From: Desulfosoma sp.
GTDB lineage: Bacteria > Desulfobacterota > Syntrophobacteria > Syntrophobacterales > DSM-9756
Reading direction: 5' to 3'
DNA: 64,000 nucleotides
Assembly: GCA_037481835.1 (NCBI GenBank)
Contig: JBBFKW010000011.1
Coordinates: 1-64,000, forward strand
Shown here: piece by piece, positions 9,001 through 15,000 of the stretch
Position numbering within the stretch: position 1 is the stretch's first letter
Layout: each line of letters starts with the position of its first letter
Position numbers: made by a program

Positions 9001-12000
9001 CATGATCGAACGGGCCGTGGCCCTGGCTCAAGGTCCCACGATCCTTGTGGAACATCTGCCGCCCGATCTTCAGCAGATCACCTTGCGTGTGAACCGCCCA
9101 CCCTTTCGGGAATTTCTCACGTTGGAAGAAGCCGAAAAGGAATACATCCTCTGGGTTTTGAAGAAGGTGCGCGGAAACAGAACGCGTGCCGCGGAAATCT
9201 TGGGGATCAACCGCGCTTCCCTATGGAGGAAACTCAAGGCGTATAACCTTTAAGCCGGTCTTCCCAAAAATGATCCGTATGTCCACATGGAGATGGCGCA
9301 TGTGTTCATCAACATGGGGGAGGCAAAGCGGGCGAAGGAGCACCTGGATACGGCGAAGCGGCTTTTCATGCTCTGGCGCGCCGAAGACAAGCGGCTTCGC
9401 AATCAGCATGAGCGCGAATCGGTCATGTCACGTCTCAAGGCCCTTGGGGTTGCCCTTCGTGCCGTCGAGGGGGATTTGGAATATGCCGAGGCGTGGTATG
9501 CAGAAAATTACAACCGAACGCCTTCCGCCAAATTGGTGGGGGTGGCTATCGACAGGATGCGCCGCAAGCTGAGCAAACTTGCCCAAGAATAATCGCCGCG
9601 CAAGCCCCATGCCTTTAGGCATGAGGACAAGCGGCATCAAGGGCTTGATTTATTTTGCTGTGGTTTACGAGTTTCCGCCGGGAAAGCCACCTAGACCCCC
9701 CCCCGCCTTTAGGCGTGGGGAGGTTCAGGCGCAACGGTCAGCATCAGCGGCGCCGCGAAGCGCCGTCCGCTGCATGCTGTTATTAGCCGGGTCATCTGCT
9801 GGCTTTTGGCGACAGCTGAACATATGCGTCCTCCGCAGACAAGTAGCCGCCAGACAGCTTCAGTCTGTAAGTCCGATCCTTGGGCACGTCGAAAACAACG
9901 AATCCCTGCTTGCTCACGGATGGATTTAGGCTCTCCAGCATACCGATTGCGCCGTCGACCGCCCAACTCCTACTGCTCGCCTCGTATTCTGCACCGTTCT
10001 GATCGATCAGTTTGAGAGGCGGGACCATGCGGGCCTTCTTGTCATCATTACGAATGGTTAGCTCGACGAATAGATACGCGGCGTTTGGACGCTCATTGAG
10101 GAACTGATTGTCGCTAAGGCGATTGGACCACCAGGATTGCCAGACAGCGTAGGACATGTAGCCGACATGAACGGTTTCTCGTTCCTTGTGAACTGCCTTG
10201 GTCTTCGCCCCGCTCGCTGGCTGCGATTGCGATTCCCGGCGGTTTGTGTTGGAGCCCTCCTTCATAAGGGAACCGATCACGCCGAGAACGATGAAGATCA
10301 AGAAGGCTGCGCCGATGTATCCCAAGCACCCGGTCTTCTTTTTGAGGACTGCCCCGCAGTTGGGACATGCGGTCGCCTCGGTACTCACGGCGTTTCCGCA
10401 CTCTTTGCATTTCTTCAACGCCATCGGTCTCTCCTTCGCCGGCTAACTCGTTATTCTGCACAATCTCCCTTAAGCTGCGATTCTTGATTAGAAGAAGCCC
10501 AGCAGGAGCGAGCGCCGCCGGGCTGTTCATGCTTGCAGGTATTGAGAACATGGGTGCTCAGGACGTGAGGACTCAAAATTTGCCAATCACCCTTGGCCAC
10601 CTGTTCCCCCTGTTATGGAGATTGGAAATAATCAGCAATTCGATTGGCCGGGGTGTCCTAGTTCGCCTTTTCCCAATAGTGGATGGGGCCGATGCCACTC
10701 ACTCATGACTATTTATGCTAATTTTTACAATGCATTGCAAGTATCATCAAATTGGAATTGCACGGCTTTTTGCCGTCAACCCGCATAGGCGGGCGAAGCC
10801 CACAGGAACGGGTCCGGTCATCGTATGGTTGGGCATCATCCCCACAATTTCGAGAGGCCAAGAAATACCCAGCTAGACATCCCAAACATCATGGCGACCA
10901 AAAGGCCGACGACGAACAAGATGATCGCAGCAGGGATGGAAGCAATGGCCAACTTCACCAAAAATAACACCATGGTCCCGAATTTCATATCAACATCAAC
11001 GACCACGACCCTTTGCTCCTGCTCCATCTTCCCCTCCTTCTAAGAATAGATCGACGGTGGTTTGAAGCGAATTTGTGGCTACGAGATTGCCTCAACTAGA
11101 TCTGCAGTGCGTCGCGTGCAGTTTTCGCATTCAGTCCAAGCGAAGGTTTCACGCCGCAGAAGATCCGCCGCCTGGGATCGAAACGTTCAGCTCGGCTGCT
11201 GAGCCTGGGGCAGCAGCGCATGAGGGACGGCGTCCAGGATTTCTTCCAGGGTCACAATTTCGAGCCCTTCCCGCGCATCGTCCGGCATGGCCATGAGATC
11301 CGCCTTGTTGCCTTCCGGAAAGACCACCGTGCGCAGCCCCGCCCTTTGCGCCGCCAGCAGTTTTTCCCGAATGCCGCTCACGGGGAGGAGCCGTCCGCTG
11401 AGGGTCAGTTCGCCGCTGATCCCCACGTCGTTGCGCGCCGGCCTTTGGGTGAGCAAGGAGATCAGGGCGAGGCAAATGGTTGCCCCCGCCGATGGACCGT
11501 CCTTGGGGATGGCGCCCGCCGGAATGTGGATGTGCACGTCCGTGTCCTTGAAAAAATCCGGATCGATGGACAACTCCTGACAATGACTGCGCACGAAACT
11601 CAAGGCCGTTTGCGCGGATTCCTTGAGGACGGTGCCGAGGGACCCGGTGAGGATCAGCTGCTGGGAGCCTCTCATCCGGGTGGCCTCAACAAAGATGATC
11701 TCCCCTCCCGCCTCGCTCCATACCAGGCCCGTGGTCATGCCCACCCGAGGTCGAGCGGCGGCCGCAAGGGGCATGGCGCGGGGTAGGCCCAAAAGTTCGC
11801 GCACGACGACGTCGTCGATGCGGCCGGGTTCGCCCAGGACGCGGCTGCCTTGAACGTAGGCCCGGGCCAGTTTGCGGCAAATGGAGGCGATTTCCCGTTC
11901 CAACTGGCGCACACCCGGTTCGCGCGTATAGTCCCGAATGACGGCGAGCACCGCCTGGTCCGTGAAATGGACGCGGCCCCCCCAAAGGGCGTTTTCCTGA

Positions 12001-15000
12001 AGCTGTTTGGGAATGAGGTGCCTCTGGGCGATCTGGACTTTCTCTTTTTCCGTGTAGCCGGAAAATTCGATGATTTCCATGCGGTCCAAGAGCGGGCGGG
12101 GAAGGCGCTCCACCACGTTGGCCGTGGCGATAAACATGGTTCCGGACAGATCGAAAGGGACGTCCAAGTAGTGGTCCACAAATTGGCTGTTTTGCTCCGG
12201 GTCGAGGATTTCCAGGAGAACCGATGCCGGATCGCCCCGAAAATCCTGTCCGATCTTGTCGATCTCATCGAGCATCAGCACAGGGTTCTTGACCCCGAGC
12301 CGACGGATCTCCTGGAGAATACGCCCGGGCATGGCGCCGACATAAGTGCGCCGATGTCCGCGCAGTTCGGCTTCGTCCCTGAGGCCCGCCACGGACATGT
12401 GGGCGAAACGCCTCCCCAGGGCCTTGGCGATGGAGCGACCGATGGAGGTTTTGCCCGTTCCCGGCGGGCCCGAGAAGCACAGCACGGGCCCTCGAGCCAT
12501 CTGCATGTGCCTTTTCTTTTCTTTCAGGGAGCGCACCAGCGCGCGCAGCTCATCCAGATTCACGGGCTTTGCCAGGTAATGAACGGCGCCCTTTTTCAAG
12601 GACTCCACAGCCGAATGGACCGTGGCGTAGCCGGTGATCACGATGGTTTCCGTATGCGGGGCTTCCTTTCGGGCGAGGTCAAGAAGCTGCAACCCGTCGA
12701 TTTTTTCCATCTTCAGATCCGTCAAGATCAGATCGTAAGGACGCGCCTTGATGCGCTGCAGCGCCTCTTCCCCGTTGGCCGCCGTGTCGACCCCGTAGCC
12801 TTCCTTGCGAAGGACGTATTCCAAATTGGTCCGCGCAATGGGCTCGTCATCCACGACGAGGATCTGGAATTGCTGAATGGAACACAAGGTCCGGACGGCA
12901 AGATATTCGAGAATCCGCTCCTTTACCGGCTCCAAGCCGTAATGATCGGCTTCCAACACCTCGCGAACATGCTCCAAGCGCAGGTCGTCTTCCGTAAACT
13001 CGGACCACGGGAGGGAAATGAGGTAATCGAGGTAGGTTACCCCGATCCCGTATTCCGCCGCCGAAGGATCGAGATTTTCCAAAAGCTCCAGTTCTCTTTG
13101 GGCGACGCGGGCCACATGCTCGGGGAGCCTGGTCTTTTCCAGAGCGGCGCGCAATGTGTCCAGCTTCGTCGCCTGGGTTTCGGAACTGTCTTGCGACTTA
13201 CGAAAAAACACCATGGGAGCTTCTCCCCGGGTTCACCCCCGTGCCTTTTGTCGTCTCCCTTCCTCGTGCCGCCCCTTGCTCAAAGGCCCACAAGGCGATT
13301 CAAACTGCAACATCATCCCGCTCGAAGGCAACAATCCATAACTCATTAATTTCTCATGGCTTTACATGGAAACCGCAAAGGTGGTTGCATTGTGCAACGT
13401 TTGGTGTCCTTGGGGCGCGCCGCCCCGTTGCCTCAAAAACGCTGTAAAACCAAATCCATAGGCATCCTTGCCCGGCCGGGCACGCTCCTTGAGTAAGGAA
13501 GGAAGCGAATGGCAACACACGCAAAGGCATCTCAAACCCTCGCCGGGAGGAGGACATCATGAAACGGTGGAAAGAAAAACTCGAAGCCATGGCCGCAGCG
13601 GTTTCCTTTGCCGAAGCCGGCGATTGGGAAACGGCGCGGGAGTTCCTTCGCGACCGGACTGAAGATCGGGTCGGCGACCGTCGTGAAAAGCGGACCCACA
13701 AGACCGATCGTCCCAGGGCTCGAATCTATCGGACGTGAAATGGATCTGCAATCCCATTTGCACAAAACAAGGAATGAGGAGGTCACAACCATGCTGAAAA
13801 AGATCAAGAAACTGGTCAAGGGGGACCGTTCCCGTAAAGAAGACGTCTCGGTGGAAAGGCGGGATCTTGTGCGGGAGCACGTGGAAGAGCAGATGGTGGC
13901 GGCAACTCTCGCGGAAGCCGGCTTGCACCGGGAGGCTCAGGATCTTGTCCACGCGGGGCAACTGGCTCGGCGCAAGGTGCTCTTGGTCGGGCGCGAAGAC
14001 GGGATTTCCGATCCGGTGATGCATTATGCCGTAGGGTTTGCCGAGCGCATGGGCTATGAAATCGTCGCCTTGAATGTGGTCCCGCTGCCTGGAGATTCCT
14101 CGCGGACGCCTGCCGCATTGGAAGCGATAGTGTGCGAATACCGAAAATCCTGCGCCGAATCCGTGGAGAAGCTGCGGGAAATGTGCGAAGCCCGTGGCAT
14201 CCCGTGCACGCACATCTTCAAGACGGGAACGATCGAGGACTGCGTGCGGGAAATCCACGACGAATTGAAGCGGATCGAATTCGTGATCAGCGAACCGGAC
14301 ATTCCGCGGGAAGCCATGAGCCGCGGGGAGCCGTGGGTGGTTCCGGTCTACTCCTTGGCCCACTGAGCACGATGTTCCAATGGGGGCGAGCGCATTTGAG
14401 CACGCCGAGATACCGTCTGGACAAGAGGGACCGTTTGGTGAGAACGCAGGCAGAGGGGTAGGTCGTGTGGGGGGGGTGTCGGCCGCGCCTACACGACCTA
14501 CCCCCATGTCATGAGAGGGCCATGAGGTCCGCGGGGGATGTTGCGGGGTGGGAGCGGATTTGAGATCTTTTCAAGGGGGATGAAAATGAACGGGCATTTT
14601 ATTTTCTCTGTGATCCTGGTTGTAGCGGTCCTCACTTTGTGTTTTCTGTACCGGAAGGAAAACAGGAAAAGATAGATGCCAACAGTGACCGTTCGATCTG
14701 AGGAGGTTTTATGACGCAAGAAATGATTCTGACTTTGTTGGTGCTCTTTTTCGCGGTGTTTCTTTTCGTCTCCGAGTGGGTTCGAGTTGACGTGGTCAGC
14801 ATCATTATGATGGTCATCCTCCCTCTCATGGGGCTCGTCACTCCGAAGCAGGCTTTTGAAGGCCTGAGTAGTAACGCGGTGGTATCCATTATCGCCGTGA
14901 TCATCATCGGCGCCGGTTTGGACAAGACGGGGATCATGAACAAGGTGGCCTCGCCCATCATCAAGTTCGGCGGCCGCAGCGAGACGCGCATCATGTGTCT

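Follow-up and report, generated by a model that had tools for sequence, protein, structure and literature searches.

A LonA protease paralogue with a receiver domain inserted in its ATPase motor in a Desulfosoma genome

What does a response-regulator receiver (REC) do inside the ATPase motor of a Lon protease? The question is raised by a gene in a 64,000-nucleotide stretch of a Desulfosoma sp. genome (the window; Table 1), whose product is called REC-Lon here. A preliminary description assumed that such a protein had not been described before. However, the architecture and the idea of a phosphorylation switch were both published in 2011 for DVU3303 of D. vulgaris, a response regulator containing a Lon protease that forms a three-component system together with a kinase and a sigma54 regulator, and for which a phosphorylation requirement was proposed (Rajeev 2011; PMC3333781). 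The present analysis adds a single clade present in two phyla, an invariant phospho-Asp, Lys and pair of linkers (104/104), and helix-1 residues shared between two receivers.

Table 1. Features of the REC-Lon locus, in window coordinates.
Feature	Position	Strand	Details
Membrane sensor kinase (HAMP, HisKA, HATPase_c)	6456..7907	+	483 aa
Sigma54-type response regulator (REC-AAA-HTH)	7904..9253	+	449 aa; EAFTGA
REC-inserted LonA paralogue P0001	11187..13214	-	675 aa; stop-free ORF translation
S16 protease domain	11214..11819	-	residues 466-667; dyad S575-K618
AAA+ core and lid	11835..12494	-	residues 241-460; Walker A G249-T256, pore Y291, Walker B D316-E317
Receiver insert	12495..12878	-	residues ~113-240; D122-D123, phospho-Asp D166, T194, Y213, K216-P217
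Three-helix bundle	13014..13184	-	residues 11-67; sole LonA N-terminal part retained
Aromatic-basic N-terminal tag MVFFRK	13185..13214	-	residues 1-10; 102/104 orthologues; low pLDDT at 1-12
Second, weaker palindrome	13297..13311		2 mismatches; 87 bp from the first
Perfect palindrome GTTGCA-N3-TGCAAC	13384..13398		published DVU3305 site type (PMC3333781 Tables S7, S9)
Sigma54-type -24/-12 promoter-like site, divergent operon	13477..13494	+	this strand in 57/103 loci
59-aa protein, A-x-x-F-A-E-x-G motif	13559..13738	+	180 bp, the published DVU3302 length
191-aa protein, AEAG helical hairpin and Usp fold	13791..14366	+	model pLDDT 86.4
SLC13/CitMHS anion permease, TrkA-C domains	14711..16519	+	602 aa

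REC-Lon is a real and widely conserved LonA paralogue with a receiver inside its motor. Its open reading frame contains no stops, and the earlier Pfam and TIGR00763 figures were reproduced. Pfam places REC at residues 118-227 (7.5e-30), AAA at 245-385, Lon_lid at 407-457 and Lon_C at 466-667, with no match to a Lon N-domain family in the same scan. The protein scores 695.6 bits against TIGR00763 (cut-off 608.05) in two separate stretches, falls below the cut-off of PRK10787 (570.1 against 891) and far below that of the LonB family TIGR00764 (82.7 against 516.6 bits), and every top match in a fold search is a LonA. Aligned to the two canonical Lons of the genome, REC-Lon begins about 245 residues late and is interrupted by a single in-frame insert that follows EYLAVRTL. 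In a comparison with a solved structure, the Meiothermus-type Lon chain 7fd4_B, residues 12-111 correspond to 240-339 and residues 241-674 to 347-777. The reported receiver insert, in frame and ahead of Walker A, is confirmed. The reported absence of the N domain also stands, although the loss is larger: domain search and alignments show that the long helix and most of the helical/coiled-coil region are missing too, which makes REC-Lon a derived LonA subfamily rather than a canonical LonA. The canonical Lon reported on contig C3 (819 aa) is indeed a separate gene, but a second lies on C5 (799 aa), and the genome further encodes an odd 1149-aa paralogue. In the retained three-helix bundle of REC-Lon, the canonical Arg (position 59) and Trp (position 64) have been lost. 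A Met-x-aromatic-aromatic-basic start is shared by 102 of 104 orthologues, which confirms the start codon call; the tag is possibly a membrane anchor.

The receiver follows the first nucleotide-binding helix and precedes the Walker A strand. In REC-Lon the E103-T256 junction spans 154 aa. Of 40 other Lon loci, 33 have 28 aa there and one has 36 aa, one is a regex mis-hit and five were missed by the regex, which gives an insert of 126 aa. Within it D122, D166, K216, P217 and T/S194 are each conserved in 104/104 orthologues, D123 in 102/104 and Y/F213 in 103/104. Both linkers have a fixed length in all 104, with 17 aa from L105 to D122 and 33 aa from K216 to G249. By its acidic pair, phospho-Asp, Thr/Ser, Lys-Pro and aromatic switch, the insert belongs to the phosphorylatable type as judged from sequence. 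REC helix 5 (220-240) is predicted to continue to the Walker A strand (244-248) in a structure model of the monomer (pTM 0.61), a model that does not give the placement of the receiver in the ring. A junction profile searched against 50% representatives returned mostly multi-REC proteins, with 8 of the 150 listed matches starting at profile position 1. Longer fused forms (1183-3375 aa) numbered 0 among 886 candidates, which is weak evidence.

The catalytic parts on either side are intact. Motifs for Walker A and B, sensor 1, Arg finger, sensor 2 and an aromatic pore loop are present, including N366, R378 and R436; Walker A, E317, N366 and R378 are retained in 104/104 REC-Lons. The Ser-Lys dyad, in its PKDGPSAG context and with S575 aligning with position 679 of E. 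coli Lon, is found in all 102 sequences that reach it, and the protease domain has a mean identity of 0.60. The key REC and Lon residues listed in the preliminary description are thus all kept. Two changes nevertheless run through the subfamily: Ala498 is replaced by Val in 96/104, and the Arg equivalent to E. coli R710, which is Ser606 here, is absent from 101/101 REC-Lons vs present in 34-35 of 39 canonical Lons. Arg710 of E. coli Lon may affect substrate choice, but PMC6098112 contains no passage on such a role. E. coli Lon with a truncated N-terminus is impaired on casein (review PMC9961632), and loss of the N domain suggests that REC-Lon is a narrow regulator and not a quality-control protease.

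Of 121 class genomes, 66 (G000 among them) carry near-full-length orthologues (55-81% identity), consistent with the 35 of 60 given before; the same search found no match in two congeners (G016, G040). The same insert is found in 38/301, 108/251 and 32/151 genomes of further sets, and the family is common among sulfate-reducing and syntrophic bacteria. REC-Lons form one clade spanning Desulfobacterota and Nitrospirota: with the insert columns removed, 34 REC-Lons and 39 canonical Lons fall on opposite sides of a branch with SH-aLRT 100. The whole module is present at L309, in a genome from another phylum, and at three named Desulfovibrionaceae loci (L067, L073, L079; 56-57%). A REC-Lon query found no match in 151 genomes of the G815 phylum and one in 151 of the G816 phylum. 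Loci were picked for long contigs and are related, and counts across them are not independent. NCBI-type annotation masks the family as 'endopeptidase La'.

Two-component genes adjoin REC-Lon, as had been reported, and the kinase is probably its cognate kinase. A kinase match occurs in 88 of 103 loci (three, at 29-30%, probably not orthologues) and a regulator match in 93 of 103 (three, at 38-45%, probably not orthologues). The lon gene lies outside the kinase-regulator operon in 63 of the 88 loci holding all three genes; here it is convergent with the other two, with a 1.9-kb insertion between. Further kinases at 16771-23094 were dropped as partners, the first of them (16771-18246) having no recurring orthologue beside REC-Lon. 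Upstream of lon, the perfect palindrome is the sole site with at most one mismatch in the 3.63-Mb genome (2.4 expected; 0.04 for a perfect site). Such a palindrome occurs within 500 nt upstream of lon in 70 of 103 loci vs 27 of 1981 control windows, with 87-89 bp the commonest spacing between two sites. The sigma54-type site is found on the divergent strand in 57/103 loci and on the lon strand in 0/103; scans for sigma70 promoters and terminators did no better than chance. In the divergent operon, the family of the 191-aa protein is a near-constant companion (90/104 loci), and a fold search with this protein ranks Usp structures top. The SLC13 permease takes the slot held by TauE at other loci.

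Within the genome, the receiver of REC-Lon is closest to that of the neighbouring regulator (54%, 126 bits; runner-up 105 bits). Helix 1 of receivers carries specificity residues (PMC2991266). Across 91 pairs, helix-1 identity of the Lon REC to its cognate receiver, set against that to 52 other RECs of G000, was 0.78 vs 0.06 at I126, 0.80 vs 0.04 at A127, 0.98 vs 0.00 at N130 and 0.53 vs 0.02 at position 133, which suggests that one kinase feeds both receivers. This kinase-facing helix is the best-conserved part of the Lon REC (mean identity 0.67 vs 0.53 for the whole). In only 79 of 91 cases did the cognate REC score above every other REC, and identity was barely higher for cognate pairs (0.506) than for non-cognate pairs of the same families (0.480, a gain of 0.026). 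The shared helix thus reflects common ancestry and conservation, and pairwise co-evolution of each Lon REC with its own regulator was dismissed. A tree of 100 receivers, in which Lon and regulator RECs intermix and forks are mostly unresolved, led to no assignment of a REC donor or gene conversion.

The intact phospho-pocket, fixed linkers, linked kinase and shared recognition helix make a phosphorylation switch the best reading, and one we hold with moderate confidence: the kinase would phosphorylate the Lon receiver and so gate a protease of narrow specificity. In a branched three-component module of the DVU3303-3305 type, REC-Lon would then act as the protease arm. The membrane kinase would phosphorylate two receivers with the same recognition helix, that of the sigma54 regulator and that of Lon; the regulator would bind the palindromes and control the divergent small-protein/Usp/anion-transporter operon. 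Splicing of the receiver ahead of the Walker A strand with fixed-length linkers suggests that helix 5 would relay the signal from phospho-Asp166 and so affect assembly of the ring or turnover of ATP, thereby gating proteolysis. Phosphotransfer from kinase to Lon REC is very likely, and control of REC-Lon activity by phosphorylation is likely. Switching on would be slightly favoured over switching off, and the likeliest substrates would be products of the module itself. A more specific version is tentative: a receiver copied from the partner regulator into the loop preceding Walker A would hold the ring inactive until the shared kinase becomes active, while the protease, anchored at the membrane by its tag, would remove the Usp/AEAG proteins or the transporter. 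The searchable literature yielded no experiments on REC-Lon phosphorylation, activity or substrate.

Other readings give the receiver a different task. It may be an address label that replaces the N domain and docks Lon on the kinase, or on the paralogous receiver in the regulator, so that a motor competent at all times would degrade or remodel either of them, phosphorylation setting binding and not catalysis. The missing N domain, usually the substrate-binding part, and the conservation of the kinase-facing helix agree with this, and the terminal tag could keep the protein at the membrane; yet a plain tether would not require linkers whose length never varies, set inside the protein beside Walker A. 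Destruction of the kinase or regulator also predicts a lon mutant phenotype opposite to theirs. In D. vulgaris, DVU3303-3305 have cofitness above 0.9 and a chlorate phenotype of the same sign, which gave genetic support to the three-component system (Trotter 2023; PMC10102598), although each of the three genes shares a 4-bp overlap and the cofitness may reflect polarity. Unless the mutations are polar, these phenotypes count against the address label, which is unlikely. They also bear on a receiver that serves as a phosphate sink, tuning phosphorylation of the regulator while the protease acts independently: removing a sink should have the opposite effect to mutating the regulator. Six receivers per ring could form a large sink and the recognition helix is common to both proteins, but fusion inside the AAA+ fold would be unneeded for this, and site and linkers are fixed in 104/104, leaving the idea improbable.

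If REC-Lon served the Usp/transporter module chiefly as an unfoldase or a chaperone and did little proteolysis, this could account for the subfamily-wide changes at the R710 position and Ala498; the invariant dyad and the conserved protease domain make this very improbable. Two frameshifted copies (L266, L300) exist, but nothing was found in favour of a neutral passenger or assembly artefact, which the recurrence of the insert across four genome sets and its invariant phospho-pocket refute. If the phosphorylation switch is true, a receiver built into the ATPase of a protease would be the shortest path from membrane signal to protein destruction. If the ring is off until the kinase fires, transcription and destruction would run side by side under one kinase, and the insertion site would offer a natural template for signal-switched proteases. 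The residue-level map of insertion site, linkers, recognition helix and N-domain loss opens the way to direct experiment in a genetically tractable sulfate reducer.

Two-component control of ATP-dependent proteolysis has so far been known through separate adaptors. CpdR is a receiver-type adaptor controlling ClpXP proteolysis, and in RssB a receiver likewise controls proteolysis by ClpXP; both are separate proteins that deliver substrates, whereas REC-Lon has a receiver in every protease subunit. NtrC-family enhancer-binding proteins also lead from REC helix 5 into an AAA+ domain, and the Lon insert is nearest the REC of such a regulator. In NtrC1 and DctD the receiver controls ring assembly. 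REC-Lon differs in that its receiver is internal, its AAA+ module is of Lon type and its output is proteolysis. LonB has an insert that is a membrane anchor. Like REC-Lon, it lacks an N domain and carries an extra domain within the AAA+ module (PMC6722904), but REC-Lon has a LonA sequence and its insert is a REC. LonA (TIGR00763, MEROPS S16) shares with it the three-helix bundle, AAA+ motifs, PKDGPSAG and Ser-Lys dyad; unlike LonA, REC-Lon has a 126-aa REC in its nucleotide-binding domain, is missing both N domain and long helix, and forms a separate clade. A REC-Lon fusion goes unmentioned in the passages covered of a 2025 review on two-component systems.

The window holds a system of the DVU3303-3305 type, with orthology drawn from kinase, regulator, palindrome and operon rather than from direct alignment to DVU3303; scanning named genomes with primers for the region upstream of DVU3303 gave 0 matches. 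The system of D. vulgaris Hildenborough is alike in its receiver and truncated Lon, its kinase (492 aa, 483 aa here), its sigma54 regulator (451 aa, 449 aa here), the same palindrome upstream of lon, and a divergent operon that opens with a 180-bp gene and includes Usp and membrane genes. It differs in forming one operon where the genes here are convergent and interrupted, in its transporter (the 356-aa DVU3299 vs a 602-aa SLC13 protein here), and in its regulator motif (GAFSGA vs EAFTGA here).

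The REC-Lon of the Desulfosoma sp. window is a 675-aa LonA paralogue encoded by an ORF on the minus strand (11187-13214). As the preliminary description stated, it carries a receiver (REC) domain before Walker A; the ORF, the Pfam ranges and the TIGR00763 score (695.6, above the cut-off of 608.05) were all reproduced. Residues 12-111 and 241-674 align with 240-339 and 347-777 of the solved Lon 7fd4_B. Aligned with this structure and two canonical Lons, the N-terminus is a three-helix bundle and a single insert follows EYLAVRTL. This insert measures 126 aa: the junction is 154 aa long, and among 40 other Lon loci 33 have one of 28 aa. 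Because the EYLAVRTL helix is taken to open the nucleotide-binding domain (PMC6722904), the REC lies inside the AAA+ module, as had been claimed. In the monomer model (pLDDT 75.7, pTM 0.61) the REC has five strands and five helices, the last of which (220-240) continues into the Walker A strand, and every fold match listed for the model is LonA. A separate canonical Lon had been placed on contig C3; that copy stands (819 aa), but contig C5 encodes a second (799 aa). The genome also holds an odd 1149-aa paralogue outside the window (G000:C3:25674-22225, minus). Its N-terminal ~340 aa are dissimilar and its pore loop (GFTY) diverges; it has GGSTQKDGPSAG and is extended by ~270 aa at the C-terminus.

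Features of REC-Lon (residues) and of the window (nucleotide positions)
Feature	Position	Strand	Remark
REC	residues 118-227		REC-Lon, Pfam
AAA	residues 245-385		REC-Lon, Pfam
Lid	residues 407-457		REC-Lon, Pfam
Lon_C	residues 466-667		REC-Lon, Pfam
Kinase	6456-7907	+	recurs beside REC-Lon: match in 88/103 loci, three probably non-orthologous
Sigma54 regulator	7904-9253	+	recurs beside REC-Lon: match in 93/103 loci, three probably non-orthologous
Zinc-ribbon/DUF4352 gene	9792-10424		inside 1.9-kb insertion
Small membrane-protein ORF	10836-11027		inside 1.9-kb insertion
Palindrome GTTGCA-N3-TGCAAC	13384-13398		perfect copy
59-aa protein	13559-13738	+
191-aa protein	13791-14366	+
SLC13 permease	14711-16519	+
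Probable lipoprotein	18251-18856		follows HAMP kinase of 16771-23094 cluster
Beta/gamma-crystallin protein	25881-26498	-
Papain-family protease	26602-27519	-
BTAD regulator	27728-28708	-

REC-Lon is a real, conserved and well-formed protein. The 104 loci compared (24 named and 80 more, selected for long contigs) include 103 with an intact gene and one, L266, with a frameshift. The L300 gene is frameshifted too; in both cases, through either decay or assembly error, the reading frame is broken while the kinase/regulator neighbours remain. Across the 103 intact sequences and that of the window (104, two ending at contig ends), D122, D166, K216, P217, Walker A, E317, N366 and R378 are invariant, and protease residues S575 and K618 persist in 102/102. 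Both linkers have fixed lengths in 104/104, 17 aa (L105-D122) and 33 aa (K216-G249). The subfamily is marked by loss of the canonical bundle residues Arg59 and Trp64, by Val instead of Ala at 498, and by position 606, which aligns with E. coli 710: it is never Arg in the subfamily (0 of 101), but is Arg in 34-35 of 39 canonical Lons. An aromatic-basic N-terminal tag is found in 102/104 and may anchor the protein at the membrane; the tag may be inherited, since one canonical Lon group starts alike.

Orthologues, previously counted in 35 of 60 class genomes, prove widespread: 66 of 121 have near-full-length matches, and five more have partial ones covering the REC. The junction region used as query matched 38 of 301 genomes in the same phylum, 108 of 251 in the order to which a named Desulfovibrionaceae locus belongs, and 32 of 151 (one frameshifted) in the phylum of a named Thermodesulfovibrionales locus. 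Two additional phyla, each with 151 genomes searched, gave no match and a single match, respectively. Matches occur in Syntrophobacteraceae, Desulfobacterales, Desulfobulbales, Desulfomonilaceae, Desulfovibrionaceae and Nitrospirota. A protein search gave 6849 matches among 7986 scored; REC and AAA are both present in all 120 listed, and those beyond are not necessarily fusions. Among atlas clusters that combine REC with Lon, Thermodesulfobacteriota predominate. In a midpoint-rooted tree built with the insert removed and three partial canonical rows dropped, 34 REC-Lons (33 random and the window's) lie on one side of a branch and 39 canonical Lons on the other (SH-aLRT 100). The whole module, including two palindrome sites 87 bp apart, is found at 53-65% identity in L309, the locus of the one matching genome among 151 of another phylum, which it likely reached by transfer.

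The adjoining two-component genes also noted in the preliminary description recur with REC-Lon (table). Where all three genes are present (88 loci), the arrangement is convergent in 40, one operon in 25, opposite upstream in 13 and apart on the same strand in 10; order is shuffled in L075, L078, L233, L237 and others. In a congener the regulator abuts lon, and the 1.9-kb insertion at 9254-11186 (GC 0.50-0.58) is absent. Among 55 matches in its genome, the Lon REC scores best, itself apart, against the neighbouring regulator (54% and 126 bits, with 105 bits for the runner-up). Helix-1 positions 126, 127, 130 and 133, which we take to be Spo0F 14, 15, 18 and 21, agree with the cognate REC at 0.78, 0.80, 0.98 and 0.53 (91 pairs); the values against 52 further RECs from the window's genome are 0.06, 0.04, 0.00 and 0.02. 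Helix 1 carries specificity residues (PMC2991266). By their sequences, the two RECs appear to retain one kinase code. Pairwise co-evolution gains no support: cognate and non-cognate pairs are nearly alike (0.506 vs 0.480) and the REC tree does not resolve the two groups. The regulator's GAFTGA loop is variable at its first position (n=91: EAFTGA 34, GAFTGA 31, GAFSGA 7, DAFTGA 5, others 14), and the tolerated variants listed in PMC4641369 do not include EAFTGA.

Divergent from lon are a 59-aa protein, a 191-aa protein (AEAG motif and Usp fold) and an SLC13 permease. The first two share an A-x-x-F-A-E-x-G helical hairpin; the smaller ends in a conserved R-P-x-x-R, and a Pfam search returned no family for it. 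Among 104 regions, AEAG-Usp occurs in 90 (the window's own copy dropped by an overlap rule), the small protein in 56, TauE in 53, tandem Usp in 42 and SLC13 in 24; NhaB antiporter and cytidylate-kinase-like families recur in 6 and 12. TauE alone is found at 51 of 103 loci, SLC13 alone at 21, both at 2 and neither at 29, a near mutual exclusion suggesting a single anion-transport role filled two ways. Nowhere else does the genome match the palindrome with one mismatch or none (2.4 such sites expected); a weaker site lies 87 bp away. A site of this kind stands upstream of lon at 70/103 loci versus 27/1981 control windows. A sigma54-type promoter-like site points toward the divergent operon at 57/103 loci, and toward lon at 0/103. 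Further on, a signalling cluster (16771-23094) comprises a HAMP kinase, lone REC, PAS kinase and REC-PAS kinase, the HAMP kinase and lipoprotein presumably pairing like QseE-QseG; a minus-strand run (23167-28708) includes two ORFs without clear family.

In NtrC1/DctD-type regulators, a change in the REC is passed to ring assembly or ATPase. By analogy, the shared kinase would, rather probably, place phosphate onto D166 of the Lon REC, and the fixed linkers would relay the effect to the ATPase or to assembly of the ring. Alternatively, the REC could serve as a docking or substrate-recognition module, which we consider unlikely, or as a phosphate sink, which is more doubtful still. Beside the retained protease dyad, an unfoldase role for REC-Lon seems very improbable, and beside the invariant phospho-pocket, an insert that is a mere passenger is scarcely credible. 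To specialists in AAA+ proteins REC-Lon is a striking design, and its proposed switching would be simple to test.

The D. vulgaris three-component system DVU3303-DVU3304-DVU3305 was already described, and the hypothesis that its Lon needs phosphorylation made, in 2011 (Rajeev 2011, PMC3333781), and the window's copy is not the first sighting. Our literature search found no test of this hypothesis, no biochemical or structural study of REC-Lon and no published account of the insert position, with most subscription papers and bioRxiv supplements outside its reach; subscription papers, Galperin's censuses and those supplements may list the architecture. In Trotter 2023 (PMC10102598), cofitness of DVU3303-3305 exceeds 0.9, disrupting any of the three helps growth on chlorate, and the target transporter DVU3299 is needed there (fitness -2.3); Kazakov 2015 (PMC4641369) gives the regulon. 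As these phenotypes have the same sign, we argue that Lon works with kinase and regulator, not as a feedback destroyer, with polarity possible because the three genes overlap by 4 bp (PMC10102598). That growth on chlorate improves without the system yet depends on the transporter would fit the speculation that Lon removes this transporter or a helper of it. Published D. vulgaris lengths of 2109, 1479, 1356 and 180 bp fit those of 2028, 1452, 1350 and 180 bp in the window, and, by description, lengths, motif and synteny, REC-Lon is almost certainly orthologous to DVU3303.
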